Position numbers and translations under genes: made by a program
The notes under the pieces: model-generated
Database searches by the model: none
Told to the model about the DNA's origin: nothing
The model's input: only the letters and a program-made list of their open reading frames with translations
Part shown: positions 3,038 through 48,790 of the stretch, piece after piece
How the letters are laid out: each line of letters starts with the position of its first letter
Numbering within the stretch: position 1 is the stretch's first letter
Assembly (NCBI GenBank): GCA_030390025.1
Contig: CM059438.1
Coordinates: forward strand, 35,650,001 to 35,714,000
DNA length: 64,000 nt
Reading direction: 5' to 3'
Source of the DNA: Squalus acanthias
Taxonomy: Eukaryota

Positions 3038-3094
3038 CATTAGGTGTTGATTGAGTACAAGTTTCAGACTAGTGGTACACAACCGATCATTTAG

Positions 3095-7811: not shown

Positions 7812-7842
7812 GTAAGTAGCACTTAACGCCGTGGCAGGAAGT

Positions 7843-13394: not shown

Positions 13395-14435
13395 AATGGA
13401 CAGTGTGAGGATTGTATAAAAAGGGAGGACAGTAAGGTGGAGAGATGGGCTGTGAGGATTGTGAATGGGGAGTGAGGTGGAGAGATGGATTGTGTGAGGA
13501 TTGTGAATGGGGAGTGAGGTGGAGAGATGGATTGTGAATGGGGAGTGAGGTGGAGAGATGGATTGTGTGAGGATTGTGAATGGGGAGTGAGGTGGAGAGA
13601 TGGATTGTGAATGAGGAGTGAGGTGGAGAGATGGATTGTGTGAGGATTGTGAATGGGGAGTGAGGTGGAGCGATGGATTGTGTGAGGATTGTGAATGGGG
13701 AGAGAGGTGGAGAGATGGATTGTGTGAGGATTGTGAATGGGGAGTGAGGTGGAGAGATGGATTGTGAATGGGGAGTGAGGTGGAGAGATGGATTGTGTGA
13801 GGATTGTGAATGGGGAGTGAGGTGGAGAGATAGACTGTGTGAGGATTGTGAATGGGGAGTGAGGTGGAGAGATGGACTGTGTGAGGATTGTGAATGGGGA
13901 TGAGGTGGAGAGATAGACTGTGTGAGGATTGTGAATGGGGAGTGAGGTGGAGAGATAGACTGTGTGAGGATTGAGGTGGAGAGATGGTTTGTGTGAGGAT
14001 TGTGAATGGAGAGTGAGATGGAGAGATGGACTGTGTGAGGATTGTGAATGGGGGGTGAGGTGGAGAGATGGACTGTGTGAGGATTGTGAATGGGGAGAGA
14101 GGTGGAGAGATGGACTGTGAGGATTGTGAATGGGGGGTGAGGTGGAGAGATGGATTGTGTGAGGATTTTGGAAGGGGAGTGAGGTGGAGAGATAGACTGT
14201 GTGAGGATTGAGGTGGAGAGATGGACTGTGTGAGGATTGAGGTGGAGAGATGGATTGTGGAAGGGGAGTGAGGTGGAGAGATAGATTGTGTGAGGATTGT
14301 CGGAAGGGAGTGAGGTGGAGAGATAGACTGTGTGAGGATTGAAGTGGAGAGATGGATTGTGTGAGGATTTTGGAAGGGGAGTGAGGTGGAAAGGTGGACT
14401 CTGTGTGGACTGTGTGAGTATTGAGGTGGAGAGGA
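13395..14435 (+). repeat. G/purine-rich minisatellite, about 1 kb, unit about 26-38 bp (tgtgaggattgtgaatggggagtgaggtggagagatggat)
   Basis: Directly visible tandem array with short and long unit variants. Confidence 0.95.
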
Positions 14436-14944
14436 TGCGAGGCAGGCGGACGTGATTTACATTTAAAACCAGCCGCAGTGTTGAATGGAATTTAGGCTTC
14501 AAGCATATGTGATAATCTTTGTCCTTTTAGAACAATGAAAGGACTGTTATATAGCACATGGGCCAGTATTTATGTACAGCACCCCACAAATTTAAACTAA
14601 TAGACATGCCAAAAATTTATCAACTATTGTCACCGAGCATCACTCGGGGATCTAATTTACCCTTTTAGGATTTTTTAAATTCTTACTGACAGTTATCCCG
14701 TGCTACTTCACTGCCACATATTCTCCATCTAACCTTTAGCAGAAGTATCCTGTCTGCAGTTCCCAAATATCATTCTCTGGTAGGACAGTTAGAGATGCAT
14801 ACCCACCTGTATTATGTATGATAAATCGTCACGTGTTATTAAAGTCTTTTTTGCCATTTGTGGTAGATTCCCCCATTCACATATTGTGACAATGTGGTTG
14901 TGATGTTGCAAATGCTGTCGGTGTGTGTTGTGTTAAAATTCATG

Positions 14945-19629: not shown

Positions 19630-19669
19630 TGACCCTTCAATGAACTAGAAGCACGTGTCCTTGTGACCT
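19630..19669 (-). promoter_or_regulatory. RARE cluster: consensus DR5 plus DR2-like site
   Basis: TGACCC-ttcaa-TGAACT (19630-19646), which reads AGTTCA n5 GGGTCA on -. TGTCCT-tg-TGACCT (19656-19669). E-box CACGTG at 19652-19657. Confidence 0.7.
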
Positions 19670-24306: not shown

Positions 24307-24323
24307 TGACCTGGGTTTGAACC
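24307..24323 (-). promoter_or_regulatory. Consensus DR5 RARE, 1.3 kb upstream of the cyp26a1 ATG
   Basis: TGACCT-gggtt-TGAACC, which reads GGTTCA n5 AGGTCA on -. Confidence 0.65.
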
Positions 24324-25447: not shown

Positions 25448-25464
25448 TGAACTTTGTGTGAACT
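25448..25464 (-). promoter_or_regulatory. Proximal cyp26a1 DR5 RARE (R1)
   Basis: TGAACT-ttgtg-TGAACT inside caattaaagaTGAACTttgtgTGAACTaatt..ctgaccaaggtaa, the conserved vertebrate CYP26A1 R1 context, about 45 nt upstream of the TATA-like box. Confidence 0.92.
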
Positions 25465-25507
25465 AATTTAACTGACCAAGGTAAGAGGGGCTGAGACCTG
25501 GAGTGGT

Positions 25508-25513
25508 TATAAG
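25508..25513 (+). promoter_or_regulatory. TATA-like box of cyp26a1
   Basis: TATAAG between R1 and the ATG at 25636. Confidence 0.65.
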
Positions 25514-25635
25514 GAGGCTTGAACCTGGAGTGTGAGCATTTGGGAGCCTCACTCGCCTCATCCTGAGAACAGCAATACTTACAGGCTGAGGGTGTCCTGA
25601 GGGAAGAACTGAGAGGAGGTCCTGCTGCTGTTAAG

Positions 25636-25824
25636 ATGGTCTTATTTACACTTTGTGCTACTTTCTTGTGCACTTTCGTGCTGCCGCTGTCGCTCTTCCT
25701 CGCCGCGGTGAAGCTGTGGGAAGTTTACTGTATAAGTGGAAGGGACCCCAGCTGTGAAAACCCCCTCCCTCCGGGCTCCATGGGGCTGCCGTTCCTGGGA
25801 GAGACTCTCCAGCTGGTCCTGCAG
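25636..25824 (+). CDS. cyp26a1: Cytochrome P450 26A1 exon 1 (membrane anchor, Pro-rich hinge)
   Basis: MVLFTLCATFLCTFVLPLSLFLAAVKLWEVYCISGRDPSCENPLPPGSMGLPFLGETLQLVLQ|gtgagg; 189 nt. Confidence 0.96.
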
Positions 25825-26396
25825 GTGAGGAGGTTCACTTATTTCAAAATAACTCGACTTTTTTTTCCCAAATCTAGGGGCCATGTCAAAATCCGTGACT
25901 TCCTCTGAGAGAAACCGAGAGCGAAGCGGTAAAAGTTGACAATAAGAATAGAAAATATATTTTTAGAAAAGAGAGGATGAGAACAAATTGCAACCTTGGG
26001 AGAGAAAACAGGTAGGCACTGCTCAGCTCTGATCGAGGCGTCCAGTATCTTTGGAGAATTGCATTCCAGTGTGTCGTCATTAATAAGAGCGCAGGCATTT
26101 AACAGCAAGCGTCGCTGTGCAGAAAAAAAACAGCAACTTGGCTTGTTTGAATGGCTGCCAAACTGATTTATTTCGCACCGTGCGCCAGGTTAGCCTTGCT
26201 GGAAGTTTGATGCGGGGCTGTCACTGGTATCAAGCTGCAGCGGAAGTATTCTAAAAGCAGTTTAAAACGTTTTCTTCCGCAGGTTTAGAAATCGCACAAA
26301 TTATGCAGCAACCTGAACACTAACCCCCCAGAAGTGCCCCCCCCCCTCCCCGAGTATTAATCGCACCCTAACCGATTAACCTGTATCCATTTACAG

Positions 26397-26621
26397 AGAT
26401 ACAAGTTCCTTAAGATGAAAGTACGAAAGTACGGCCACATCTACAAGACGCATCTTTTCGGGAGCCCGACTGTGCGGATCATGGGAGCTGAGAATGTGAA
26501 GCATATTTTATTAGGGGAACACAAGCTGGTGTCGGTGCAGTGGCCCGCCTCGGTGAGGACGATCCTGGGAGCCGGCTGCCTGTCCAGCCTGCACGATTCC
26601 GAGCACAAACACAGGAAGAGG
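26397..26621 (+). CDS. cyp26a1: CYP26A1 exon 2
   Basis: ttacag|RYKFLKMKVRKYGHIYKTHLFGSPTVRIMGAENVKHILLGEHKLVSVQWPASVRTILG...HKHRKR|gtaagt; 225 nt. Confidence 0.96.
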
Positions 26622-26976
26622 GTAAGTGCACACTTTCCACATCTGACCCATTAACCGAGAAAGGTTGCTGTCTAAAAGACTTCGCGGATCAAGCGTCTTG
26701 CAGTTTGCAAACTTCTAGCCTTTGAATCTCAGGCTGAACAAGAGTAAGAATAGGAAATCCCACAGAATCATTGGCATTAACCCATGAGTAGAAAAGTCCA
26801 ATTAGGCAGTGCTGGAGTCAGAAGTGCTCATTTAATAGTCAGTTGCATATTACATTCATTTTAAAAGTGGCTTCTTTTAAGTTCTTTTTAAAATACAAAA
26901 CTGAGAGTTTATTTTCAATGTAGAAAGAGGGGAATTGGTGCTGGTTTAATCAGATGTTTTAATTTTTTTTTAATAG

Positions 26977-27261
26977 GTGATTTTGAAAGCTTTCTCCCGA
27001 GAAGCTCTCGAGAACTACATTCCAGTGATGGGCGAGGAGATCAGGGCCGGGGTGAGGCGATGGCTGGAGAGCGGCCCCTGTGTGCTGGTTTACCCCGAGA
27101 TGAAGCGCCTCATGTTCGGGATCGCGATGCGGATCCTGTTGGGCTTCGAACCCACGCAGACCAGCCGGCAGACACAGCAGCAGCTCATCGAGGCTTTCGA
27201 GGAAATGATTCGCAACCTCTTCTCACTGCCCATCGACGTGCCGTTCAGCGGCTTATACCGG
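26977..27261 (+). CDS. cyp26a1: CYP26A1 exon 3
   Basis: taatag|VILKAFSREALENYIPV...VYPEMKRLMFGIAMRILLGF...FEEMIRNLFSLPIDVPFSGLYR|gtaaga; 285 nt. Confidence 0.96.
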
Positions 27262-27425
27262 GTAAGATCCGGAGTCAAGATTACAAAAAGGGAGGGAGGG
27301 AGGGGATTGGGGCCGGGTAAATGGAGTGCAGGTTTTTGCTCCAATAGGAACTAAAGCACGGGAGACTGAAGAATGTAACCTTTAAATGGCGGGGTAACAA
27401 TGAGTGTGCCGTTATTTGGTGACAG

Positions 27426-27575
27426 GGGCTGAAGGCGAGGAATGTTATCCACGCAAAAATCGAAGAGAACATCAGGAAAAAGGTGGCGAAACGCGAGGCC
27501 ACGGGCCAGTTCAAGGATGCTCTGCAGCTTCTGATCGAACACTCAGAAAAGAGTGACCAACCCCTGCGTTTACAG
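27426..27575 (+). CDS. cyp26a1: CYP26A1 exon 4
   Basis: gacag|GLKARNVIHAKIEENIRKK...KDALQLLIEHS...LQ|gtaaag; 150 nt. Confidence 0.95.
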
Positions 27576-27584
27576 GTAAAGCTA

Positions 27585-27875
27585 CTGCCCCTACCCCAGA
27601 ACACTGCCCCAGAACACTGCCCCACCCCCGCCCCTTCCCCAGATCATTACCCCAGAACCCTGACCCTTCCCTATAACACTGCCCCATCCCTGCCCATTGC
27701 CCCAGAACATTGCCCTTCCCCAGAACACTGTCCTTTCCCCAGAACACTGCCTATGCCTCAGATCATTACCCCAGAACATTGACCCCCAGATCATTACCCC
27801 AGAACATTGCCCCTGTCCCAGAACACTGTCCCTGCCCCAGACCATTTTCCTAGACCCAAACCCAGAACACTGCTC
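27585..27875 (+). repeat. C-rich degenerate minisatellite (cccagaacactgcc) in cyp26a1 intron 4
   Basis: More than ten cccagaacac/cccagatcat units starting right after the donor site. Confidence 0.85.
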
Positions 27876-28245
27876 AATAACTAACGCAACTCCTGATTTT
27901 ACACCGCAGTTGAACAAACTTAATATACACCATTTTTTAAAGCAACGACGGGTTAAATGTTTTTCGTTCTTTAAATGTTTAAATCCCAGTGAGGAGTCTC
28001 ACTCCGGCTTCCTTCATCCTGCGGCAATGCGCAATGTCCAGATGAGAAATGCCATCGACTCCGTGCACACGGCCCTGCTACCCGGTGGCTTCACGGGTGC
28101 AAATTGCAGAACATTTGCAGCAGTGGCAATCTTTGGGATCATTGACGATCTTCAAGCGCAGTCTCTACTACAGGAGGTTCAGTGCCGGCACTCTTGGAAC
28201 GTGCCTGATGTGTGTGTTTTGTTTTCTCTCCCTTTTTATTTGAAG

Positions 28246-28380
28246 GAGCTGAAGGAATCTGCCACCGAGCTCCTGTTTGGAGGACACGAGACGACAGCCA
28301 GCACCGCCACCTCCCTGGTCACTTTCCTGGCCCTGCACCCTGAAGTGCTGCAAAAAGTCAGAGGGGAATTGCAGGAGCAG
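28246..28380 (+). CDS. cyp26a1: CYP26A1 exon 5 (I-helix)
   Basis: ttgaag|ELKESATELLFGGHETTASTATSLVTFLALHPEVLQKVRGELQEQ|gtaagg; 135 nt. Confidence 0.96.
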
Positions 28381-28569
28381 GTAAGGCATCGCATACCAGT
28401 CAGAGCTCACTGCACATTCCCAGCCTCACATCCATCCCCTTGATCGGATTCCTTGGGTTGCACGGATTTGCAACAACCAAAATCCATTAGCAGCAAATTG
28501 AGAGTAATTTAAGCACCAATCCCGGATTTTGTTTTTGGTTTTAAATGTGGCTTCTCAATGGATTTGCAG

Positions 28570-28725
28570 GGATTACTGAGCAGCGACGCTAAAGAGAACA
28601 AACAAATCACCATTGAAGTCCTGGAACAACTTAAGTATACCGGAAGCGTCATCAAAGAAACTCTTCGACTGAGTCCCCCGGTCCCCGGAGGATTCCGCGT
28701 GGCCCTAAAGACCTTCGTGTTAAAT
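28570..28725 (+). CDS. cyp26a1: CYP26A1 exon 6 (K-helix ExxR)
   Basis: ttgcag|GLLSSD...LEQLKYTGSVIKETLRLSPPVPGGFRVALKTFVLN|gtaagc; 156 nt. Confidence 0.96.
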
Positions 28726-29257
28726 GTAAGCGGAAATTTCAGAGTCAGAAATAAGCGTTCTGTGAAACATTGGAGCCGTTTGAAACCTTTACAGCAGTCA
28801 CCCTAAAGCAATTCCCTGCGTACATTTAGAAAAAAAATCAGAATTATCCCACAATTGATTTTACAATACCTCCAGACTTTGTAATGTTTAATTAATAATC
28901 GTAAATATCGCCAATAGGTTTTAAGCGGGTCTCCACCACTTTGCATGGGCAACAATTAGGCATTCCTGCAGCCGTCGCAAGCTACAAACGATTTCCCTCT
29001 GCAGTATCAAGCAACATGAGAATCTAATTAAACCGTTCGTAGTTCAGCGATTACACCGAGTGCCCAGGAGGAATCATTGGCAGCACTATGGGATGGCACT
29101 GGTAGTCTAGTTCCATAGCTCCAGCTTTTTCGGTCCAGATACTGAGAGTTGCGGGGGGGGGGGGGGTGGTGTCTGCGAACGTGTTTTGATTTAACCCATT
29201 TATGTTTAAACGATGGATTGGACGATCGGATCGATTGGGAAGATTCTGAACAGCAAG

Positions 29258-29271
29258 AGTTCACAAGGTCA
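29258..29271 (+). promoter_or_regulatory. Consensus DR2 RARE in cyp26a1 intron 6
   Basis: AGTTCA-ca-AGGTCA. Confidence 0.6.
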
Positions 29272-29482
29272 TTTACATTAAGAGGCCGATAACATCGGAT
29301 CATTAATTCGCAGCCAATTTCATGCCCATCCTTTAGACCCCCACAGCCTACTAATGGGGACTGTATATGGCTCCAATAACACACCTGAGCTATTAGGAAA
29401 CAATTCACTTCAATTCCAAGGTGTATGATAGTATAAATATCACAATCCTTACAACAGAATTTATAAAAAGTGCTGGATTGTA

Positions 29483-29756
29483 GAAACATAGAAAAATAGG
29501 AGCGGGAGTAGGCCATTCGGCCCTTCGAGCCTGCTCCGCCATTCAATATGATCATAGCTGATCCTCTACCTCAATACCATATTCCCGCTCTCTCACCATA
29601 CCCCTTGATGCCTTGTGTCTAGAAATCTATCTCCTTCTTAAATATATTCAGTGACTTGGCCTCCACAGCCCTGTGGGGTAGAGAATTCCACAGGTTCACC
29701 ACCCTCTGAGTGAAGAAATTTCTCATCTCAGTCCTAAATGTCCTACCCCTTATCCG
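29483..29756 (-). mobile_element. CR1-type LINE 3' fragment
   Basis: gaaacatagaaaaataggagcgggagtaggccattcggcccttcgagcc...gagaattccacaggttcaccaccctctgagtgaagaaatttctc. Confidence 0.8.
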
Positions 29757-29813
29757 AGATAAATTGTAGATAAATATATTACGTTAAAATAATCAAGTCA
29801 ATTTCATTTCCAG

Positions 29814-30158
29814 GGATATCAGATACCAAAAGGCTGGAATGTGATTTACAGTATCTGTGACACACATGATGTAGCCACAAATTTCTCGAAGAAGGAAGAG
29901 TTTAACCCGGATCGCTTCATGGAGGGCTGTCCGGAGAAAGATTCCTGCAGATTCAGCTACATCCCATTCGGCGGAGGCTCCAGGAGCTGTGTGGGCAAAG
30001 AGTTCGCCAAGATCCTGCTCAAGATCTTCACCGTGGAGCTGGTCAGGGCTTGCGACTGGGAACTTTTAAACGGACCTCCTACAATGAAAACTAACCCCAC
30101 CGTATACCCAGTGGACAACCTGCCCACAAAATTCACACCGTTCCCATACACAATCTGA
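29814..30158 (+). CDS. cyp26a1: CYP26A1 exon 7 (heme-binding), stop TGA
   Basis: ttccag|GYQIPKGWNVIYSICDTHDVA, FNPDRF, heme motif FGGGSRSCVG and PTVYPVDNLP. The seven exons sum to 494 aa; all introns are phase 0 and GT-AG. Confidence 0.97.
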   Translation, partial: GYQIPKGWNVIYSICDTHDVATNFSKKEEFNPDRFMEGCPEKDSCRFSYIPFGGGSRSCVGKEFAKILLKIFTVELVRACDWELLNGPPTMKTNPTVYPVDNLPTKFTPFPYTI

Positions 30159-30664
30159 CCTTTTCACAACACCCCGGGACTCTGCAGAGCCACCGCCTCA
30201 CCATTAGCGGCCCCCGGCCTTTCCCGTAGTGTTCCAGTCAGTGTACCAAGATGTGGGGGGAGGGGGAAGGAATATTCTTCAGGAAGTCATGAAACTGGCA
30301 AAAGCTTCAATCCCATTTTTAAATGGTAGTTTCGTCCGGATCTTGAAGTTGAAAACATTTCTCCCACAATTGTTGTTGCCTGTTTTTCCGCAGTGATTAT
30401 AGAGTCTGACTGTTTCGCACAGCTCACTTGTTTTTTTTTTAAATTAATTCTGTAAATAAGCTATTTTATACTACCGTATTTGTAATCTTCTCAAAACCAC
30501 TGCTTTTAGATTATGAATTATTTAACTACATTGTAGCTTTGTAATGCGACTGCTAATTTATGTTAAGCCTTGGAGTGTAAATATTATAATTTAAAGAACA
30601 GGCTGCCTGGCAAACATTGCAAGTACGTTTCAAGCACTAGGCCATGAATCAGGAGGATACATGG

Positions 30665-30703
30665 TGAGAGAGAGAGAGAGAGAGAGAGTGTGTGTGTGTG
30701 TGT
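30665..30703 (+). repeat. (GA)n(GT)n compound microsatellite in the cyp26a1 3'UTR
   Basis: Directly visible. Confidence 0.9.
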
Positions 30704-30736
30704 CCGTCCCTATATCAGGAATGTTTAACAACACGC

Positions 30737-30742
30737 AATAAA
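30737..30742 (+). terminator. cyp26a1 polyadenylation signal AATAAA
   Basis: First AATAAA found after the stop codon, about 580 nt downstream, following an AU-rich 3'UTR. Confidence 0.7.
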
Positions 30743-30775
30743 AAGGACATGAACCATAGAGCACTAGTGAAACGA

Positions 30776-30781
30776 TTTATT
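30776..30781 (-). terminator. myof polyadenylation signal AATAAA (minus strand)
   Basis: TTTATT on +; the first minus-strand AATAAA found after the myof stop at 31457, about 680 nt downstream. Confidence 0.65.
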
Positions 30782-31294
30782 AGCAGCTAACATTGCAGTT
30801 GTTAAAGTACAGCAACTACGCATTTAAATTACATTATTTTGGTCCAAATTCTTATGCAGCAAAAAGTGGACTGGAAAAAACATTAAACACGGAGCCTTTG
30901 CCTAATGCAACACGATATAACCCTCCGAATGTCAACTGCCGATTTCTTCCATTCCAGTAGGATACATGCAAACCAAGTGGAAGCATTTGTGCTTTTTTCA
31001 TTAAGTACAATTTTGGAAAATATTCTATAAAAATCCCATAATCTGCGTGTCGTGTGTGTTTTAAACCTATATTGTAACAGATTAGCAAACCGACCACCTC
31101 GAATAGCCATGATTTAACACACTTTTCAGCTTAGTTCACCGTTCCAAATACACAAAAAAACCCTGGTATTTCATAACTAGAGAGGCACCTGCTAAACAAA
31201 CAGTCAATTGCGCAAACGCTGGGATAAAACCAGCAGGGTCCTGGTCATCAGGGTCAGCACATTAACATGGAATCACTGATAAACGGCCCAGTCA

Positions 31295-31319
31295 TGACCC
31301 CATGAACCTTGCCTAACCT
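31295..31319 (-). promoter_or_regulatory. Composite DR2/DR5-like RARE 3' of cyp26a1, inside the predicted myof 3'UTR
   Basis: TGACCC-ca-TGAACC (consensus DR2) followed by ttgcc-TAACCT. TGGTCA-tca-GGGTCA lies nearby at 31242-31256. Confidence 0.5.
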
Positions 31320-31456
31320 TGGTAAATGTAGATCTTGTCACCCTCCTAACCTCAGTCCATTTCTACCCTTAAGGCCACGAGGTTGTAGACATATGAAATG
31401 AATGTTCCTGGACCAGCTATACAACAGAGTCGCTGCTGCGGGAGGACGAGCCAATC

Positions 31457-31498
31457 TTACATTCCTCTAGGATTCACAATTCGCATGGATAGGTAGTT
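31457..31498 (-). CDS. myof: Myoferlin terminal coding exon (NYLSMRIVNPRGM*)
   Basis: Acceptor tcttccacag|AAC TAC CTA TCC ATG CGA ATT GTG AAT CCT AGA GGA ATG TAA. Matches the MYOF C-terminus NYLSMKIVKP; phase 0 fits the upstream exon. Not in the ORF track. Confidence 0.9.
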   Translation of the reverse strand, partial: NYLSMRIVNPRGM

Positions 31499-32289
31499 CT
31501 GTGGAAGATAATAAGATTAGTAAAAGTGAATACCGTGAAGTGCTATTTAAGTTTGAACTTACAAACATCTCCTCATTTAATAGTTCTCAAAAGCAGCAAC
31601 ACATTTTCCAGCATATCCACAGGTCATCTGTTAATTTGACAAGCTCAGATAAAAGCTTATCTAAGACCTGGGTCAAGAATTACATCGGCTGCAGATGGTT
31701 ATCTGAAACACTCAGTAGAACTTTAAAAAAAAATGATTAATAGAAATAAAAGGAAACACGTAGACTTGCTTTTACTCACAATAAAAGGAATATAGCTTCT
31801 GGATTCAATTTCACCTTTCCATGACCTCAGAGTTGGTGGCCAAACACCATCTCCTGAGCCACATGTGGCTCTTCACACCTACCTGCACATTCAATCGAAG
31901 TGCACACTTGGTATTAAGGGTGCACTCACACACTGGGGCCAATTTCTCTCTGAATTGCACCCATGTGTGTCCAGGTCCATTTCTGTGCCACAACAGAGGA
32001 AGATGGGGCAGAAACCAGTTACACCTGGTTACTTCTCTGCTTCATGGTACTTCAGGTTGGAGTTTGAGTTTCACTGCGACTAAAAATAGGCATTTCTATT
32101 TGAATTGAGATTTTTGATGCACAGGTTTCATCCGTTAGACCAGGTGCCGTGTGACAGTAAAAACTTCATCTCAGAATTTATTAGCACCTCTTATGCTAAT
32201 CTGCAGAGATCCAAGGCACTTTCCATCACACCAGCCTTTACAGTCACCAGATCAACTTCTGTCATTTCCTCCACCATGCACATTTTCAC

Positions 32290-33450
32290 CTTCCCTCCCC
32301 ACTATTCCCTTCAGGATATCCTTGTTCAATCTTCCACTAGTCCAAATTCCACCTGGCCTTCCCCAAGCAACAGCACCAGATACACCACCACTTGACTTCT
32401 CCCACACCATTGTCCAGGACACCAAACACTCCTTCAATGCTAGACAGCGTGTACTTCCTTCGATCTAGTACTCTATATTCACTGTTCCTCATCCACATCA
32501 ACTTTTCTGCAGTCTTTTCCATGGTGGACCAGACCATCCTCCTCTTCGGTCTTTCCATTGTCCAGCTCAATGGGACTTCCCTCGCTTAGTTCTACTCTTA
32601 TCTAGGCAAGTTTAGCGCAAGGATCTCCAACAATGACTTCTGTTCCCATTCTATTACATCTGCAGTCTCCCAAAGATCTATCCTTGGGCCCCTCCTTTTC
32701 CACATGTACACACTGCCCCTTGAGTCATCATCATCTGAAGTCATGGGGTCAGGTTCCATGTGCACACTGGTGGCACCCAGCTCTACCACTATCTCGCTCA
32801 ACCCTTCCACTGTCTCAGTATTGTCTGACTGCTTGTCTGAGCCACTTCTGGAGGAGTCTCAATTTCCTTCAGTTAAAGATTGGAAAGATTGATGCCAGTG
32901 TCTTTGGACTTCTACAAACTCCACAATTTTGCCTCCTCCTAGGTCACAGTCTCAGGTTGAAGCTCACTGTTCACAACTGTGGTGAGTTTCCAACCCCATA
33001 TCCTCTATGACAAAGATTGTCCACATGCACCTCCATACATCGCATGTCTCTGCCCCTGCATAAGCCCCTAAGCTGCCCAAACCCTTATCCATGCTTTTGT
33101 TACTATTCCAATGCTATTCTGGCCAGCCTCCCATCCTTCAACTTCAGCTTATCCAAAACTCTGCTACTAGTATCCTATCCTGCACCAAATTCCACTCACC
33201 CATCACTCCTGTGCTTGGTGACCTACACTGGCTCCCGATCCCCCAACGCCTCAAACTTAAAATTCTCAGCCTAGTGTTCAAATCCCTACATAGCCTCCCC
33301 ATTTCTGTAACCTAAAGCCTACAACCCTCAGAAATTTCCCTTCCTCCAACTCTGGCCTCCTATGCATCCCCAAATCCTTTGTCCTCACCATTAGTGGCTG
33401 TGCCTTCAGTCATCTAGGCCCAAAGTTCTGGAATTATTCAAAACCTCTCC
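32290..33450 (+). mobile_element. Degraded L2 LINE (RT/C-terminal region); L2-type tail also at about 34132-34280
   Basis: Remnants FSAVFSMVDQTILL and LQLIQNSATSILSCTKFHSPITPVLGDLHWLPIPQRLKLKIL are typical of L2 ORF2; many frameshifts. Confidence 0.8.
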
Positions 33451-36099
33451 ACATCCCCACCCTCAAGAACATAGTCACACTGCATCAAAAATATTAGTTG
33501 GTTTTGAGGAGTGAAGGGAAGAGGAGCAAAGAGGCAAGGAAAAAAATGGCATAAATTGACAAAACACAGAACAAACAAAAATAAATAAATTGATTCTTGA
33601 CATTTTTCCCTCTGAAGATTTCCCCGTCTCTCAAACTGATTCTACTAATTCAGAGGCCAGACTTTTCTATTCTACATTGAATGATAAGGGACAAGTTCTG
33701 CATTCTTTCCCCTGTGACCTGAAGAGCAGCATTCTAGTTCTGCACAGAGCTCTATCTAGTGGCCAGGCTGAGAACTAGACTAACTTGTCTATGAACCAGA
33801 TCAGTTTGAACGTCAATCAAGGATGTGATTCAAACGTATGATTATTATCTCTTTACTACTGGGTCAAGACCCACTCCTCCAAATAAGGTCACAAAGACAC
33901 CAAAATTATTTTTTTTACCTCATGGGAACAATCATTTGGTGAAAAACAAATATTCTGAATGGCACCAATGGCTCAGCAAGTTTATTTATTCAATGAGTTA
34001 CTGACTTATACAGACCAGGAAGGTCTCGGGCTTAAAATCTCAGTCTGTGCTGTAGTGGCTGATCTCGACTTGGGGAAGTGGGCTTCAATTGGCCTCAGTG
34101 GTCCTGGGGAGCCTCTCTGCCTCTCTTCCAAGATGCTCCTTAAAATCTATCTGACCAAGCTTTTGGTCACCTGTTCTAATATTGAGACTTGGTGTCACAT
34201 TTTGTTTGATAATGCTCCTGTGAAGCACCTTGGGATGTTTTACTATTTTAAAGGCGCTATATAAATGCAAGTTGTTGTTTTGGGGAAGAAAGGTAGAAAT
34301 AATCCTGTGATCCCTGCTGGAAAGTGTGTTGGTGTAAATGTTGGTTAAGGCTCGCTATCTCCTGTTTGAACAGCCTGCCAACACAACAACTACTTTCACA
34401 CATGAAAGGCAACCAGGTGGGTGAAATACCCAAGGGCTGCAGGTGCCCATATAACTGTACTGACATGAGTCAGCATCTTGAGCGGCAGGAAGGAGAAAAT
34501 TGGGATCAGGGAACAAAAACAAAATACATCAAATTAAGCATCTCCATATGCAGATATTAGTTAGAAATGTTCCTAGAATAGGGGGCTGGATTTCTACATG
34601 CTTCAAGGATGGACTTAATGAGGAGGAACTGGGATTTAAATTAAATCCATTTAATTGGAGGTGTTGAAACAGAATTAGCGTCTTGCGACACAGGATAGAT
34701 TCCCCACTCTACTGACTTTCTGACCTCAATCAAGCTGCATGCCAAGTGCAGGCTCAGCATCTCTAAAGAGAGGAAAAAACACTTTTGTTTGGGAGTCTCA
34801 ACCAGGATTCTCTCATGTGATTCCTGGCAGTCGGCCAGGAACAGCACTGCCAGTCCTTAGAACAAGCACTCACTCACTTGCATTGGCTACTGCTGACGGC
34901 GTCTGGCCCAGGAGGAACTAATGATGGAAGAAAGTGGAGGGTGGAAAGAAAAGCTGTACATTTTTCCTTTCAGGTTATGCTGCACAAGTTTTATATTATG
35001 GCTGAATTTTAGAACATTAGATACTCATTTCAGCTTTAAAAAAAATAGCGAGGACTGGCAATGTGCTATGGAGAGCCCACTACTCTGTACAGCTCGGAGT
35101 CTTCATGCAACATATTTTACACAAGGTTATTTTTTAGGTTTAAACTGCCCTTAATTAAGATGTTAGAGGCTAAAAATGAAAAATAATAATCTTTCCTAAA
35201 GTTCTTTTCTGCTTCAAGGACCTGCTGTGTCAATCTTGGAAATGGGACCTTTACCCAATTCTCCATCTGTTCAGGAACTGAAGAAATTCCCTAGCCTGGT
35301 ATTGGCCCTCAGCTCAGCTACTCAGCGGTGATTTTTCTCCCCCCAGAGATCAAAGCAGTTAGGGTGGATGTACACTCTCTGGACGGAACTGGAGACTGCT
35401 GTGAAAGTCCAAGAGCAGACGGGCACTGCTGAGCCCACACTTTTACACCAAAAGACACGAGAGGGGGGAGTGAAAGTTGCCTAGCAACATGCATGACTCG
35501 ACAACACAACTTGCTGAATAATGTATAGATTCTTGGATTGGCCAAGGTGTTGGAAGGAGCCAATGTGGAATAATTTAAATAAAATTCCTCCAGGACTTGC
35601 TGGAAGTTGGGGCGCTCATATTTGACAGAACCCATTGTACACCAATTCCTTGATCTGCAGATCCCAACCTCCAAAGGCTGTTGTGCTTTTCCACATTATC
35701 ACACTAAAGAAGTGCTGTAGCAGGCCTGCCCAATTTGATGTGGAAGATCAGCATCTCTTTATTTACGGAGACTACTCCCTCTATTTGTTGCTGCAAATTT
35801 AACGTTCTGAAACAGGCCCTCCACTACACACTACTTTATCCCAGGTTTGTACATACATAAACCTGATGCCTTGCTCCTTTTTCCTCATCTGAGGCAGCAA
35901 AACTTGCCAAAGCCACAGTGAATTAGACATCCTTTTGATCTGATAGTATCACATATCTGTGAATCCAATGAGCATGATAAACTGGGCCCCTTCCAGTTTA
36001 TGCCTTGTGGAAGCAACAAAGCAGTTATATAATTCTTATGGTGAAGCTCGAGGAATGGTTAGTCTCATGTTGGAGAACAATCATGACTTTTGCCAGTTT

Positions 36100-38150
36100 T
36101 ATTCTGATCTACATCAGTCAGAATTGCTGTTGAGGCAATCTGGAGTAACCTATCTGATTTTTCCTTCACACATTGAGGATGAGGAAGACGGAGGGGGACA
36201 AGGAGGGTGAAAAGGTGGCTACCCTGGATGAGCATGAGAACTATTGATCTTGGAGGAGATGCTCCATGCCATAGACTCCTTTTAGGTTGATAATGCCCTC
36301 TGTACTTGGTGCTGCCCCTCTATTCCCAATATTTGGCAAGATGCATCCATCTTCTTTATCCTGAAAGGCGGCAAGGAGCCCTATGAATGTGCCTTCAACA
36401 AACCAATCTTTCTTCATCATTAGTCAAAGATATCTCCCCGATTTCTAGTTAGCAGTCCGAATAGATTCATTGGTTCACACTAATTCAACAAGATGGATCT
36501 GTGGAACATATACATTTAATAATGCAGCCGATTTAGAAATGATGCCCATGCGGCAGATACCAGCTTGGTCCTCTCCCTTGATATTGCAAAGGATTTTGAT
36601 CAAATCAAGTGAGTTTGAGTGTTGCTGCAGACCATGAGGTTTGGGAGAACCTATACTCAGTGGATCACCAATGAGATTGTCTCTCCCTCTCAAAGAGTGG
36701 TATTTGGTCTTTCTTCCTCATTCTATGTTGGTTATTGAGCTCTCAGCATCAAGTATACATCCTTTCCCTGATATCTGAGGGATTCAAGTGGTGGACAGGG
36801 ATATCAGACATTATGCAGTTATTGTACAAATGGGCCTCAGGTCTTCCTCGCCTGCTTGCTTTATGAAGTGCATTCAGCAGCACAGTCTGGGAATAAAATC
36901 AACTATTGCAAGTCAGATGACTTTGGCCAGTTTCTACTGGCTTAGGAACCTTTTCATTTTGTTGGGGCTCTGGCATTTTGGGGTGCAGATTGCTCCAGAC
37001 TTGTGCCACCTTATTGGATCAACCATCTGGGATCGCAGCAGGGTCACCGTTTTGATAATTAGCATTCTGTCGAGGTTGCTTTATTTAGTCCAAATTCTCC
37101 CAGTATGTACACCGGGGGCCATCTTTAAATAGCAAGATTGGGAGATATTAAACTTTATACAGGATGACAAGCATTCTGCATTAAGTTGAAGTTGCTGCAA
37201 TCCAATGGCTATCCTCCCTTTATGGGCTATATAGCTTCATGCATGTTAGACTACAACTGAAATAGGGGTTCTCACCCCAGTACCCATCTTATTTCATTTA
37301 AAAGAAGCCACGTATCATTCCAATTGTCTTGTGGATCAGGTCAGATTTTGAACATTTTCATATTCTATTGACTGCCTGTTCCCAGTATGGGATGACCCAG
37401 AGATCTCATCACTAATGGGTGGATTCCATAGATGGCACAAGTCGGAACTCGTGTGCCTTTTCCATTTGGTGGGCGGTGAATCAGTCTGATCTTTTACCTC
37501 TGCAGCAAAAAGTCACACTTAGAAAGTGACTTTTCTTTCGGTATCTCCAAGGTTTGTTGTTTTCTTCCCCCATTTCCAAAAATTACTTGTAAAATTTCTA
37601 GATGAGAGACGGCCTTGAAGCCAATGCTCCTGCTAAGCTGCGCAGCGGTCTGGAGGTCCCGCATAGGCCGCTCACCGGCTTTTATATGGAAGAAACCGTG
37701 CATGCGCGAAAATTGGAATGGGCCTCACAGCCGGTTAAAGGGACCGCGCACAAGCAAAAAAAAAAAAAGGAACCATTGCTTGGAGCCCTTTCTGGTTAGT
37801 TTGGCTGTAGCAGCTAAACGAATTTTACAGTTCTGCTCATTTCTATGGACATGGTAAGCTCGTCTCAGTTGTGAGAAGTGGGTGGCCGATGTAAATCTAG
37901 GACTGGTCGACTGTTCTACAAAGAGTCCTCAGGCTCACAGCCAGCAATCGCTAGAGGAAAACAATTAAAATTTTTATGCTGAACGTGTCACTTGACCGCT
38001 CCACGAGTAGCCAAGATCTCAGAACTGTGAGGCATGGGACATAGAGGAGTCAGCACCCACTAGGACATTCTGCAGATCTGCTCTAAGGTTTGAATTTATT
38101 AGACTATGATTTTATAGGAGCTCAAGTTTAGCACGACACATCCACTTTAC
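36100..38150 (+). mobile_element. Ancient, heavily decayed L1/Tx1-clade LINE remnant with a nested GC-rich insert (about 37580-37830)
   Basis: Scattered motifs in the expected order: LKGGKEPYECAFNKPI (cf. K.GKDP..C.SYRPI), LSLDIAKDFD (cf. SLDAEKAFD), ILSRLLYLVQILPV (cf. ILPRLLYLFQ.LP). Boundaries uncertain. Confidence 0.55.
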
Positions 38151-41100
38151 AGCTGTTAAAGTCCCCTTGGACCCCAGCAAGAGCCGTCTCATTTAACTTG
38201 TTGCAGCTTGTCACTATCTCCTGACTCTCTAGTGCCAGGTAGACTTGTCTTCTGATCTGCCTGGTCTTCAATATTCTGGGGAATAGCCCACTCTGAATAA
38301 TCTATCCTGAAGGTAATTTTTCTTTTAAAAGGTGTGGTTCCCTTTGAATTATTTTGCTCACTGCTTTGTTACTGCAGTGTACTCAAGATACCTTATAACC
38401 ACACTGGGTTAGCTGTATTTAGATGGAACACAAAGAATTCTCCGTGAACAGACCCTGCCACCCCATCGCAGGTGTTTTGATCCTTTATCCTTCTTTTCGG
38501 TTATAGTCACTAGTTCTGATATCAACCGTAGTCTTTCATATGATACATATTTTCTTGATGTATCCAGATTGCTCTGAACAAATTTCTCTCCCATTGTCCT
38601 GTTTATACTCACATTCATATTTCATAGTTTATAGGGGAGACATGTCTCACTGTGGTTTCATCCAGGATATAACCTGGATGTCTAGTGTTTACATCACCTG
38701 GTACCCAGGAACGCACAGGATCGGGCCATCCTCCTTTGGCAAGAAAATAAAAACACAAGTCTACTTCATTTTTGGTCATTATTCTTCGTCTCCCAGGCAC
38801 GAGGACTAAACAGGCCAGACTGCAGGCAGTGCTATTCCCCAGTCGCCCCACCAGGTGGTGTTCTTGAGTGGTGCGGAAGCGCCTCCCCCGTCTGTGAAGG
38901 GCTGAGGAGCCAAGCTCACTTGGACTTTAGGGGAAGCTAAAGTGCAAATCCTAGGTTACCATTAAACACTATTACTGCATTAAAAAGTGAATGGTGCCAT
39001 GACATTTTCAAAATTAGCCAACATACCAAAAATTCATGTAAGTTATGTTAGTCTTGTAGAGAAATCTGATCTTTAAATTGAGAGTGGGGACAATATAGCA
39101 CCCTAAATTTGAATGTCTGGTTACATCATTAACCAGAAAAACAGAGTCTTGATGAAAAACTAGTGGCTTAATTTAAAGCAATATCATGCCATTTTATCTG
39201 CTTATTAGAAACCCACTAAGTTTCTGCCAATGGCCAATCTTGAGCGGCGACTTGCTCAAGGGCCACTTGAACCTAGCACCATGAAACCACTCCAGTGCTG
39301 AACTCTCGTCTCCAATATCAGAGCTGGTGATATTGGAACGACAGAGGGCCCTGAATTCAGACTTGGAGACACATGAAGCAGCAGCTCTGATGAAGGTTTC
39401 AAGTAAGAAAGGTGGGCTGCAAATGGTCCTGTAGTACAGCACCACTGAAATACAAGGTTAGATTTGACAAACTACAGAACTTCAATTTCGTCATTCAGGT
39501 CAAGTCGCCTGCTCAAATACTGTATTCAAATACATGTGGCAATACATATACATATATTTTCTCCTGAATTAATATACTGCCTAACCTGAACCCATGTAAG
39601 TAGGAGACCTACTTTTGGCCTCCACAATTACTGCTCTAAGGTAGTCACTTTTGAGGCACATAAATAGGGCTCAAGAAAATCCTCATCCAATTTCCCCTTA
39701 ACCCCTTGGTAGTGAGGCACCTGCTCTTTGCTTGCCAACTTCACATGACAGACAGCAGGAGGTGTGAATGTGTGCTCCCATCTCCATGGGGCTCCAGGAC
39801 ACCGTGCCACTGGCTGTGTGACTTTTTCTCTACAGATCTAGATCTCCATTTTCTTTCCCACTGTGGACTTGAAATTTAGAAAACAACTTTATATCCAGGA
39901 AAGATAAATCATAGAATTGCTTACATTTTTAGTCAGTTGCACATAGTATTGCAGATCAAAATTGAAACATATCCAAATTTGTAAATTTAAATTGAGCTAA
40001 ATTTATTTAAAATAAACACAGCTATTTATATTAGCACACATGGGATCAAACTTCAGGTTTTAAACAGAAACCTTTCCCTCCTAAGAAAAAGTGGAAAATA
40101 CTTGCTTTATAAAAACTTTATACATTGGTATAAAGCGAATCAGATACACCAACAGCAGCACTGTGCTTGTAGCTAAGAATCCCCAAAAATGCCTTAATGT
40201 TAATTAAACGTAGGTGAAAAAAATGGATAAGAGTATGCCAGCACAGACATGTAAAGAAAAGAGCATCACCAAACAGCTATTGAAAAATCCAGCCCTCGTG
40301 ATAATAGAACAGTTAAAGCCTCCCGACTCCCTGGTCCTTACATTTCTCAGCTTTATCAGCCACTTAAAAAAAATTCAGCCATGCTAAGGTCACAAGGCTA
40401 AGGAGGGAGATGATGATGGTGCACAAACAGCACTGGAAAGTAAGGTCATGAGAAGGGGACTTGCCTTAACACAACATTGAGAGATCCAACACTGCACAAC
40501 TAACAGCTGCCTTGGTTTGCCATTCCTGTGCTAGCTCCACTAACTGTGATTTACTACTGTACCAGCTCTGGTGTTGACACCTTTATGTCCCTCCCTCCTA
40601 TCCCAGCAGGCCTGGAGGCCATGATGGATGCTGCTGAACTTTTCCTCCTATCACCTTAAAAAGAACTTTCCCATAATCTTTTGTCTTCCATCAAAGTGGA
40701 AGACAGAAGGGTTTTTATTTAATTTTAAATTAACAGCCTTGTTGCTCCAACATGGTAGCAATATACAGAATTTATTACACCAGTGAAATTCTTAAACTCC
40801 AATCTCTTTTTTTCTACCCAATGAACTGAACATAGTCCAGAGTAAATCAATGTAATTGCTGCTCGCCCAGCATTATTGTAGCAATACTTTATACTATGTG
40901 CCATTGGTAATTTGGTGTATTTAATTGAAAATGCTAAGATAATGGGGAACTTAACTACTGACATTAACCCTTTTATTGCCGATGGCCCATGAATAGATTA
41001 TATATAAAAGAGGCTGCACTTTACAGTCAGTTAAATATATTCCAACTTATTCCAATGATGTAAATACACAAACAAAAAAAACGTACTTTGCCGTTCCGCG

Positions 41101-42200
41101 GCTGTATAATTTCGCTTTCGGTTATTTAAAAAAAAAGTTAAAAACTTCACCCCTTCCCTTTTGAGGTAGTTTAACATTTGCAGTAAGGCCCTGGATTCCC
41201 ATTCAAAAGTTCCAAACTCCAATTGCAGCTCATGCAGCCTCCAAGAGCAGGTTTCTTTTTTTTTTTTAAACTGGCTGGATCATAAAATAGATCTCAAGGA
41301 GACATATCCTGTCTCGCAAAGTAGATTACTGGTTAGTCAATATAGCACATCAATAGGGGCTGAGAAGCCCGCACTCTAGGTTAAAGGACAGCAAAGAAAC
41401 AGGATGGCAGCAAACAGTGGGGGAGGGAGTAAAAGTACAAGTGTATTACAACAAAAATCTGGCTTGTTCATTGAGTTTTAGTACTATTTCTGATCATGGA
41501 CCAAAAATTACAAAAAAAAACAACAACAGTGCATGAAGGGAGCAAATTAATTGTGGCATTTTTAAGTTTAACAGATTAAGAGCTTATGCTGAAGAATCAG
41601 GAGCAACTTAATTTTATGCAGGCCTGGACATTGTACACAGTAAGTGAGGAAGAGCAATTAAATAGGTTTAATAGCAATTTTTATTCTTTAAGTTAATTAT
41701 AGAAGCTCTTACTTAATTAAATCAAAGCAATACAGTGATTAAATCACGAGCCTGTGCATTTTTACTTTGCTGCCAAAACACAACTTAAGCTTCCTTAAGC
41801 CAATCTCCTACTGTGCCACTATCTTCAAAAGCAGTCTCAATGCAAGAGGATTTTTCTACCTTTAGACTGGAGTTGGCGACAGTTCTGTAAACACAGTAAT
41901 GACAGTGCCAGAGACACCAAGAGAAGCCCCTTTGAGAATTTGACTTGGTGCCTCCAAACTCTGCTGAAAGCAGCAAGCGTCTCCATTTTAGATCAGGCCT
42001 CAGCTACATTTGACCAAATAGTCACCATTAGATTCTATACAAGGAAAAGCAAAGCCCAAAATGTTACACATCAGTGATGAACTGAGCTACGAGAAAGAGG
42101 AAAGAAAAAAAACATTAAGTTTATTCCTTGAAAAAAAACTGTTTACTTGTGCACTCTCACTTTGGTAACAGCAATATTAAAACCTACACCATGTACTTAC

Positions 42201-42348
42201 CGGCAATGAATAAAAGAAGATCCCAAGGAACAGAACTACAAACAGCAGTATTAGGATCCCAAGAAAGATCCATTTGAATCGGCGCCAGATGATGTATTTC
42301 ATCGTCTTGCAAGGACTGGTGAACCACAGGAAAGAAGTTTCTGGACGG
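42201..42348 (-). CDS. myof: Myoferlin penultimate exon (C-terminal transmembrane helix)
   Basis: atcag|(N)[49 protein letters not shown]|gtaagt; 148 nt, phase 2/0. Confidence 0.95.
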
Positions 42349-44313: not shown

Positions 44314-44423
44314 TTCGGAGGCTCCAGTTTTGGGTTCATGTTGGGTTCATCTCTTGCTTTGGCAGCAGGTTTTTCCTCAGCCTCTTGTTCAGTGATAATC
44401 TCCAGTGTCATTTCAACTTTACC
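44314..44423 (-). CDS. myof: Myoferlin exon (ferlin C-terminal region)
   Basis: ttccag|[36 protein letters not shown]|gtaacc; 110 nt, phase 0/2. Confidence 0.95.
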
Positions 44424-45739: not shown

Positions 45740-45933
45740 AGCCAAAATACGGTTGCCATCTTTCTCTTGGGCACATGGCCACCATCCATTGAGAGATTTC
45801 TGAGAAAAAAGTGAAGTCGTTTTAGATGCTTTCGTAGGAGCAGTTCCCTTCGCCTCTGGGAGCATTTTCAAGTTGCATCCTGCAGCTGTTTTGGCTGGAC
45901 ATATTGTGGAATTCAGGTCTAGCTCAAGGACAC
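45740..45933 (-). CDS. myof: Myoferlin exon (last C2 domain)
   Basis: tcacag|(G)VLELDLNSTICPAKTAAGCNLKMLP...SLFSQKSLNGWWPCAQEKDGNRILA|gtaagg; 194 nt, phase 1/0. Confidence 0.94.
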
Positions 45934-46604
45934 CTGTGAAGCAGAGATAAGAACACCAGAATTATGTAGATATAGATGATGAGAATCAAAAAACAACCAC
46001 AAGGTTAGAGGGTTCTGGCACCATTTGCAGTCTGCTGCACTCTGTTTGCCCTCCTACTGGACCATAATCAAACTTCTAAACTAACAACCAGATTACTTTT
46101 CTGATCCTATTATTCATGATGAACAAGAATGTTTCAAAGTTCATTGGGTCAACTAAATTCAGCAGATAAAAAACAAGTCATCACAATCCCATTGTTTCGC
46201 CTACTGGCGTCTCACTGAAGTTGTTTTACCTGCGATGCTGAAAAACAAGGCCATCTCACAGGAAAATTTGCACGTGCGTGTGTGAACAGATAAACAGATT
46301 TCCTCAATGCTTTCACTGATCCAGCATACAATACTAATGCACATATTCTATTTAGCTACCTAATCAGTGGCTTGACAGGGTACATTATACTGATGGTGAT
46401 GCCTGGATGATATCAGTACTCTTTCTGTAACCTTAAGCCATGTGTTGCAGTCAATTGTGGGGGTAATAGGACAATGAAAAGCATGCTGAACTGCCACTCA
46501 GTATTTTTAATTCTCAGTACTTTCAAGGGAGGATAAAATGCAACTAACTCCTTTATTGAAATACAGTTCCATGGGACAGGGCTGTGACTCCCTTACTTTA
46601 AAAA

Positions 46605-48790
46605 AATTCTTTCATGGGATGCGGGCATCGCTGGCAAGACCAGCATTAATTACCCCTCCCTAATTGCCCTCGAGAAGGTGGTGGTGAACACATTCTTGAA
46701 CCTTGCAGTCCATGTGGTGAAGGTACTCCCACAGTGCTGTTGGGGGGGGGGGGGGGGCGGTTTTGACCCAGCTACGATGAAGGATCGGTGTTATACTTCA
46801 AAGTCAGGATGGTGGGTAACTTGCAGGTGGTGGTGTTCCCATGCGCCTGCTGCCCTTGTCCTTCTAGGTGGTAGAGGTTGCGGGTTCGGGAGGTGCTGCC
46901 GAAGAAGCCTTGGTGAGTTGCTGCAGTGCATCTTATAGATGGTACACACTGCAGTGGAGGGAGTGAATGTTTAAGGCAGTGGATGGGGTGCCAATCAAGC
47001 GGGTTGCTTTGTCCTGGATGGTGTCGAGCTTCTTGTGTTGTTGGAGCTGCACTCATCCAGGCAAGTGGGGAGTATTCCATCACACTCCTTACTTGTGCCT
47101 TGTAGATGGTGGAAAGGCTTTGGGGAGTCAGGTGGGGAGTCAGGAGGTGAGACACTCGCCACAGAATACCCAGCCTCTGACCTGCTCTTGTTGCCACAGT
47201 ATTTGTGGCTGGTCCAGTTAAGTTTCTGGTCAATGGTGACCCCCAGGATGTTGATGGTGGGGGATTCAGCAATGGTAATGCTGTTCAATGTCATGGGGAG
47301 GTGATTAGACTCTCGCTTGTTGAAGATAGTCATTGCCTGGCACTTCTGTGGCGCAAATGTTACCTGCCACTTACCAGCCCAAGCCTGAACGTCATCCAGG
47401 TCTTGTTGCATGCGGGCATGGACTGCTTCATTATCTGAGGAGTTGTGAATGCCGCTGAACACTGCAGTCATCAGCGAACATCCCCATTTCTGACATTATG
47501 TTGGAGGGAAGGTCATTGATGAAGCAGCTGAAGATGGTTGGGCCTAGGACACTGCCCGGAGGAACTCCTGCAGCAATGTCCTGGGGCTGTGATGATTGAC
47601 TTTAAACCACCACAGCCATCTTCCTTTGTGCTAGGTATGACTCGAGCCAGTGGAGCGTTTCCCCCCCACCCCCCCGATTCCCATTGACTTCAGTTTTACT
47701 AGGGCTCCTTGATGCCACACTCAGTCAAATGCTGTCTTGATGTCAAGGGCAGTCACTCTCACCTCACCTCTAGAATTCAGCTTCTTTGTCCATGTTTGGA
47801 CCAAGGCTGTAATGAGGTTGGGAGCAGAGTGGTCCTGGCGGAACCCAAACTGGGCACCAGTGAGCAGGTTATTGGTGAGTAAGTGCCACTTGATAGCACT
47901 GTCGATGGCACCTTCCATCACTTTGCTGATGATTGAGAGTAGACTGATGGGGCAGTAATTGGCCAGATTGGATTGGTCTTGCTTTTTGTGGACAGGACAT
48001 ACTAGGGCAGTTTTCCACATCGTCAGATAGATGCCAGTGTTGTAGCTGTACTGGAACAGCTTAGCTCGAGGCACGGCTAGTTCTGGAGCACAAGTCTTCA
48101 GCATGATAGCCGGGATGTTGTCAGGGCCCATAGCCTTTGCTGTATCCAGTGCACTCAGCCGTTTCTTGATGTCACGTGGAGTGAATCAAATTGGCTTCTG
48201 TGATGGTGGGGACCTTAGGAGGAGGCCGAAATGGATCATCCACTCGGCACTTCTGGCTGAAGATGGTTGCAAACGCTTCAACATTGTCTTTTGCACTCAC
48301 GTGCTGGGCTCCACCATCATTGAGGATGGGGATATTCATGGAGCCTCCTCCTCCCGTTAGTTGTTTAATGGTCCACCACCATTCATGACTGGATGTGGCA
48401 GGACTGCAGAAGGACTGCAGAGCTTTGATCTGATCCGTTGATTGTGGGATCACTTAGCCCCGTCTATAGCATGCTGCTTCTGCTTTTAACATGCATGTAG
48501 TCCTGTGTTGCAGCTTCTCCAGGTTGGCACCTCATTTTTAGGAACGCCTGGTGCTGCTCCTGGCATGCTCTTCTATGCTCCTTATTGAACCAGGGTTGGT
48601 CCCCTGGCTCGATGGTAATGGTAGAGTGAGGGATATGCCAGGCCATGAGGTTACAGATTGTGGTGGAATACAATTCTGCTGCTGCTGATGGCCCACAGCG
48701 CCTCATGGGTGCCCAGTTGAGCTGCTCGATATGTTCTGAATCTATCCCATTTAGCACGGTGGTAGTGCCGCACAACACGATGGAGGGTGT
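46605..48790 (-). mobile_element. 5'-truncated CR1-group non-LTR retrotransposon, frameshifted ORF2
   Basis: GPDNIPAIMLK..WKTALVCPVHKK..NYCPISLLSIISKVME..QFGFR..ALDIKTAFD; QQDLDDVQAWAGKWQVTFAPQKCQ; IYKAQVRSVMEYSPLAW. Confidence 0.9.

Follow-up and report, generated by a model that had tools for sequence, protein, structure and literature searches.

The window analysed here is a stretch of 64,000 nucleotides of the Squalus acanthias genome. A second cyp26 gene is followed by plus-strand cyp26a1, and this in turn by the 3′ part of the ferlin gene myof, encoded on the minus strand (Table 1). The cyp26a1 product shares 483 of 494 residues with P0005, a Heptranchias perlo CYP26A1. Its last exon carries a Pfam p450 match and shows 97% identity to Heptranchias CYP26A1 and 49% to the last exon of the upstream paralogue. 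Full-length matches on a single gene are closest in sharks; ESM Atlas and PDB searches returned generic P450 matches only. The best named relatives are CYP26A1 and a second cyp26 gene lies upstream, as for a CYP26A1 orthologue. The gene is compact, with a span of only 5.1 kb.

Several other features surround the coding sequence. Exons of the upstream paralogue, labelled cyp26c1 from synteny, lie at 7140-7812 and 12301-12669 (+), with 12301-12669 being its last exon. One exon contains a long insert of low complexity, and about 2.3 kb separate the stop of this gene from its first AATAAA. A TATA-like box is found 129 nt 5′ of the cyp26a1 start codon. Three cyp26a1 contigs carry 149-183 letters more upstream (25450-25636) than the six coding exons require, possibly reflecting an upstream start or additional 5′ sequence. 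Degenerate short-unit tandem repeats occur in cyp26a1 intron 4 (27590-27870) and 3′ of the paralogue (13256-14526). A high-copy repeat, visible as very high contig depth, occupies part of cyp26a1 intron 6 (29500-29755). Reverse-transcriptase-like remnants, judged by eye from translations, were noted at 3051-4379 and 46998-48453.

The identity of myof was assessed from its exons in the window. Scored against myoferlin, the ferlin exon at 45740-45931 reaches 65 bits, compared with 33-37 bits against dysferlin, so that on this one exon, with no tree, the gene is nearer to myoferlin and is taken as the MYOF orthologue. Among solved chains, dysferlin is the sole match of the transmembrane exon. A preliminary description of this DNA had placed the terminal myof exon at 31457-31498; these coordinates hold for the coding part only, and the whole exon would continue to about 30762.

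Table 1. Features of the cyp26a1-myof locus (positions in the window)
Feature	Position	Strand	Remarks
cyp26a1 coding region	25636..30158	+	7 exons, 494 aa, no internal stop
cyp26a1 exons	25636-25824, 26397-26621, 26977-27261, 27426-27575, 28246-28380, 28570-28725, 29814-30158	+	
cyp26a1 stop TGA	30156-30158	+	
cyp26a1 3′ UTR	30159..30753	+	reaches the last letter of the X9 contig
cyp26a1 AATAAA	30737..30742	+	on the minus strand, contributes to the U-rich tract 30744-30737 that follows the myof end
Spacer	30743..30775	.	33 nt; likely cleavage zone of both mRNAs
Palindrome CACTAGTG	30762-30769		inside the 33-nt spacer, off centre
myof AATAAA	30776..30781	-	TTTATT on the plus strand; the chief U-rich stretch in the 40 nt that follow the cyp26a1 hexamer
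myof downstream U/GU-rich region	30726..30755	-	+20 to +50 from the hexamer; 16 U, 9 GU/UG
myof last exon	30762..31498	-	13 codons and stop; 3′ UTR about 695 nt
myof stop TAA	31459-31457	-	
myof last intron	31499..42200	-	10.7 kb, GT/AG ends
myof penultimate exon	42201..42348	-	transmembrane segment; Pfam Ferlin_C, E 6.2e-11
DR5 RARE-like repeat	25448..25464	-	172 nt 5′ of the cyp26a1 start codon; putative, consensus match
DR5-like repeats	19630-19646, 24307-24323, 25448-25464, 31811-31827, 44333-44349		consensus matches
DR2-like repeats	29258-29271, 31295-31308, 46138-46151, 49890-49903		consensus matches

The two genes lie tail to tail. Their stop codons are 1,298 nt apart, in keeping with the 1.3 kb first reported. 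Between the stops there is one AATAAA on each strand, and the two hexamers face each other across 33 nt, exactly at the positions originally given. Both likely cut sites fall in this spacer, and there would be essentially no intergenic DNA, as first claimed. Convergent expressed genes and a hexamer spacing that leaves the cut sites in between are among the traits of bidirectional poly(A) elements, and both are found here.

How readily such a layout arises by chance depends on what is counted. A facing AATAAA pair anywhere is not rare: the window contains one, and 34 of 100 shuffles contain at least one. For the first hexamers of both genes to face each other within 15-50 nt is a rarer outcome, reached in 37 of 5,000 shuffles of the inter-stop sequence, or 37 of 1,867 when only shuffles with a hexamer on each strand are considered. 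The facing of the two first hexamers is beyond chance.

In fish and mammals, the hexamer precedes the cut by 10-30 nt and a GU/U-rich region follows it by 5-30 nt, according to the relevant parts of two papers (PMC3460199, PMC12138237). The 100 AATAAA of the window were ranked by downstream U plus GU count, an ad hoc score and not a trained model. The myof hexamer ranks first, and UGUA motifs are positioned 26 and 48 nt 5′ of it. The cyp26a1 hexamer is equalled or exceeded by 75 of the 100 and has no UGUA within 150 nt, the nearest being 157 nt upstream. With a myof cut at 30762, an 8-nt U-rich tract (the cyp26a1 signal in reverse complement) would lie at +18, followed at +26 by a GU-rich run. 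A cyp26a1 cut at 30753-30763 would place TTTATT at +23 to +13, with little else. Judged by these motifs, the myof site is textbook and the cyp26a1 site is weak. The proposal that each AATAAA acts as the other gene's downstream element therefore fits well on the myof side and poorly on the cyp26a1 side, as far as motifs can tell.

The reading that we favour, and consider likely, is a single bidirectional element that is strong on the myof side and weak on the cyp26a1 side. The two mRNA ends would meet there or share at most about 20 nt. For myof, AAUAAA at 30781-30776 on the minus strand would be bound by the cleavage machinery, with the cut some 14-25 nt further on, near 30762-30750. The tract UUUUUAUU and the GU-rich run would then lie 6-35 nt past the myof cut. 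On the plus strand, the machinery would bind AAUAAA at 30737-30742 and cut at or beyond 30753. Here UUUAUU would be almost the only downstream element, so that the cyp26a1 side is likely the weaker one. Each hexamer is thereby predicted to double as a U-rich downstream element for the opposite gene. The same double use was reportedly described by Jan et al. in 2011. We infer both the exact cut sites and the reciprocal use of the hexamers.

The palindrome CACTAGTG, around which the hexamers had been said to face each other, is where it was said to be, but it is weak: an 8-bp palindrome is present in 93 of 5,000 shuffles of the spacer and in 179 of 1,922 tiles of 33 nt across the window. The palindrome is probably incidental. 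It is nearly coaxial with a 9-nt inverted repeat (30724-30732 and 30798-30806), as might be expected if the shared element were a structured RNA, or the relic of a small inverted-repeat transposon that supplied signals on both strands. Such a repeat arises in 22 of 2,000 shuffles of a hand-picked 100-nt stretch, but the 351-nt stretch really searched yields one in 182 of 1,000 shuffles. Folding gives a z of -1.90 on the plus strand (8 of 200 shuffles) but only -0.86 on the minus strand. Rfam returned no match up to E 1, a 12-nt deletion at 30788 in one organism (C) takes out part of the right repeat arm, and DNA run depth at the element is single-copy-like. Neither a significant conserved structure nor a multi-copy repeat was thus found, and we hold either origin to be highly improbable.

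Transcript evidence comes from assembled sequencing runs. The stretch, or part of it, is contained in 24 runs, all as unstranded contigs, and 4 of the 24 were aligned to 29700-31600. Three of these (X1, X5 and X9, from three organisms and three studies) were taken as RNA-like because their contigs are spliced; none is recorded as RNA. Their cyp26a1 contigs, about 2.2 kb in length, come in precisely at 29814, where the exon starts, and spliced contigs of cyp26a1 and myof co-occur in 3 of the 3 RNA-like runs aligned, which are bulk samples. The preliminary description made its reading depend on a splice from 42201 to 31498. This splice is present in X1 and X5, where the loose ends behind 31499 correspond to the plus strand from 42202 onward, and in both X5 and X9 a full-length myof contig includes the spliced terminal exon.

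The fourth run aligned, X22, is DNA-like. A single contig spans 29758-31591, with 59 substitutions and 70 gap letters, and runs through the site, which places cyp26a1 and myof in the same adjacency in a second species. This adjacency is shown, as are the last myof splice, the gene models with their orientation, and the motifs.

Some contigs end inside the 33-nt spacer. The X1 myof contig begins at 30762, 14 nt past the myof hexamer, with 1 unaligned letter. X9 comes from a diverged relative, whose cyp26a1 piece shows 50 substitutions and 38 gap letters; its 7,155-nt myof contig is aligned to 30771 with 2 letters unaligned. This is 5-7 nt past the hexamer, nearer than a cut site should be. In the same run, and in this one study, the cyp26a1 contig finishes at 30753, 11 nt past its own hexamer. 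Depth arithmetic for the bin 30724-30787 in X1 and X9 gives no further contigs and no missing letters, and no poly(A) tail is found among the loose ends listed for the four aligned runs. Since contigs fix neither end nor strand, the ends at 30753, 30762 and 30771 are a weak hint of mRNA 3′ ends. The shared 3′ end first proposed is supported by the geometry of the motifs and, weakly, by these contig ends.

Other contig observations were set aside. A gap in X5 from 30660 to about 30946, with a myof contig stopping at 30947, was dropped, as a filter or an allele bubble suffices to explain it. The 17 nt left uncovered in X9 (30754-30770), and the lack of a gene-joining contig in X1 and X9, do not count against read-through, since contigs lose rare forms. 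A (GA)n(GT)n microsatellite at about 30657-30715, in the cyp26a1 3′ UTR just 5′ of its AATAAA, breaks the contigs of X1 and X5. The myof 3′ UTR has a length-variable spot, with an 8-nt insertion at 30909 in X1 and a 9-nt insertion at 30914 in X9.

The unequal strength of the two sites raises the question of whether only myof uses the site well, with cyp26a1 ends that are heterogeneous or lie further on, truly overlapping the myof 3′ UTR in antisense. The weak downstream region and distant UGUA of cyp26a1 would suit this, and later ends are on offer at ATTAAA 30882 (+) and AATAAA 31745/31780. One X1 contig of depth 6 starts at the microsatellite and reaches 30776, which is 34 nt beyond the cyp26a1 hexamer. 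A contig that retains an intron has a similar depth (5.13), and the X1 contig may accordingly represent read-through, or else pre-mRNA, from either gene. There is also precedent in c-fms/HMGXB3, for which the sections consulted give 1-4% read-through (PMC8370744). Against this, the cyp26a1 hexamer is the first after the stop and AATAAA is the strongest hexamer type, and the X9 cyp26a1 contig stops right behind it, a weak hint in itself. We judge ends elsewhere to be unlikely and retain the single bidirectional element.

The close spacing of the two genes is not general among vertebrates. We take the human CYP26A1-MYOF distance to be about 230 kb. In mouse, the gap comes to 197,508 bp when subtracted from coordinates in a supplementary table (PMC4446430), which agrees with the mammalian distance of about 200 kb that had been put forward for human. 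The order of the genes is itself ancient, with the Cyp26 pair lying between Myof and Exo6 from lamprey onward, according to passages of one study (PMC10879103). Human variants between CYP26A1 and MYOF have been linked to glaucoma and Meniere disease in parts of two further papers (PMC5814451, PMC13393102). The portions available of PMC3156792, PMC3769385 and 10.1101/2021.06.23.449634 do not give gene distances.

Two further records were compared. L001 is a metagenome record in which one exon is 100% identical over 113 residues to a named songbird CYP26A1. The last exon of myof is absent from the 6,887 nt after its cyp26a1 stop, where the best match is 4 of 10 residues, compared with 10 of 10 for the control in our window. 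The first AATAAA after that stop (+438) is followed by 1 nt and then by TTTATT (2871-2883). No gene faces it within reach, which shows that a facing pair of hexamers need not mean a partner gene. A teleost-like record (L002) holds 369 nt past the stop and is uninformative for the myof distance. The abutment of cyp26a1 and myof is not vertebrate-wide and is so far seen in sharks only.

Polymerases run on past poly(A) sites, and at this locus the termination zone of each gene therefore lies inside the other. Polymerases from cyp26a1 would terminate in the last myof intron (31499..42200). On induction by retinoic acid (RA), as first proposed, they could enter the last exon and intron of myof and collide with its polymerases or yield antisense RNA, altering the 3′-end choice or level of myof. 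Parts of one paper describe induction of Cyp26A1 by RA through RAREs (PMC10879103), and a putative DR5 RARE precedes the start codon here. The weak cyp26a1 poly(A) site and the presence of both spliced transcripts in every RNA-like run would favour such coupling. So would the report, in section 5.4 of a review, that nearby opposite-strand genes suppress distal sites (PMC12138237).

For myof to be affected, an alternative end is needed. The myof 3′ UTR holds no further AATAAA or ATTAAA and three weak variants only; with no second strong signal there, alternative ends would need to be intronic. The last intron does contain 13 sense AATAAA, one of them 76 nt in. At 42125-42050 (-), this AATAAA is followed by a long pyrimidine tract and AG, and reading on from the transmembrane exon into the intron meets a stop after 7 codons. 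This segment may be an intronic poly(A) site, or else an alternative last exon. The intronic AATAAA at 42125 ranks about 21st by score, however, while the terminal myof site is the top-scoring one in the window, and the full-length contigs of X5 and X9 go to the terminal exon. In mouse the genes are 197.5 kb apart, so that not all vertebrates need the coupling. As cyp26a1 is just 5.1 kb long, interference is no less plausible from myof onto cyp26a1 than in the other direction. We think RA coupling to myof improbable. A regulatory purpose is superfluous for explaining the shared end.

Repeats resembling RA response elements may bear on the tight linkage itself. The window has 5 DR5 matches where 0.82 are expected and 4 DR2 matches where 0.80 are expected, and 0 of 100 shuffles attain either number. 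Five of the nine repeats are inside myof (31295, 31811, 44333, 46138 and 49890), and one is in cyp26a1 intron 6. Linkage might then be due to cyp26a1 response elements lodged in myof as a bystander host, with the shared end as a by-product. Sections of the mouse study report a DR5 region bound by RAR/RXR 3′ of Cyp26a1 (PMC4446430), and synteny with Myof extends to lamprey (PMC10879103, in part). On the other hand, consensus matches do not equal function, and one repeat falls in a myof coding exon. The 6.9 kb downstream of cyp26a1 in the bird-like record L001 contain no DR1, DR2 or DR5 match and no non-coding similarity at E < 0.05. Moreover, regulatory linkage needs no zero distance. This account of the linkage is doubtful.

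These threads can be joined into a broader but speculative picture, in which the cyp26a1-myof block was ancestrally compact, as it is in the shark, and acts as one regulatory unit, the mammalian gap of about 200 kb being a later expansion. RAR sites in the myof 3′ UTR and introns would drive cyp26a1. The weak cyp26a1 site would send RA-induced polymerases head-on into the last myof exon, and myof read-through would traverse the 5-kb cyp26a1, giving mutual tuning, a coupling that the mammalian expansion would have broken. We regard this picture as a whole as improbable.

What the analysis provides is the likely 3′ ends of two shark genes, the retinoic-acid-degrading cyp26a1 and the membrane-repair gene myoferlin. 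Its comparative value lies in an interval of about 197 kb in mouse having essentially zero length in these sharks. It follows from this zero length that any downstream control elements of cyp26a1 either lie inside myof or arose after the shark split. Were the coupling true, polymerase collision between convergent genes of a vertebrate could be tested at this locus in a natural setting, with a ligand as the switch. No account of abutting cyp26a1 and myof 3′ ends was found in the literature searched, which covered text without figures and few subscription papers.

The arrangement itself is already known, and in this respect the mechanism proposed at first is not new. By 3P-seq, zebrafish has 797 opposite-strand poly(A) pairs within 50 nt of each other, 336 of them within 10 nt, and the sections at hand attribute these to palindromic bidirectional elements like those of C. 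elegans (Ulitsky et al. 2012, PMC3460199). The shark locus shares with the zebrafish and C. elegans elements, as far as these are described there, convergent transcripts, facing signals and scant intergenic DNA, and its opposite poly(A) sites probably also lie within 50 nt. Unlike the zebrafish pairs, the shark ends are inferred from contigs and the two sides are unequal in motif strength. It further differs from both in that the host is a shark and the mouse orthologues are 197.5 kb apart.

In human cells, c-fms (CSF1R) and HMGXB3 are likewise tightly juxtaposed convergent genes with possible antisense read-through. They differ from the shark pair, in the passages describing them, by a 162-bp intergenic region, separate signals, read-through measured at the level given above, and reciprocal effects (PMC8370744). 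The bidirectional termination zones of yeast (10.1101/2022.11.02.514956) and the shared polyadenylation regions of Arabidopsis (PMC3032780) also end transcripts of both strands in one short stretch. Signals in these organisms are degenerate and broad, whereas the shark has two canonical AATAAA at vertebrate spacing. The EXOC6-CYP26C1-CYP26A1-MYOF synteny block agrees with the window in having a second cyp26 gene upstream of cyp26a1 and myof after it, but its synteny passages, unlike the present description, mention neither distances nor abutting 3′ ends (PMC10879103). The cyp26a1-myof pair adds one case to a known arrangement, and is notable chiefly for the gap of about 197 kb that separates the same genes in mouse.
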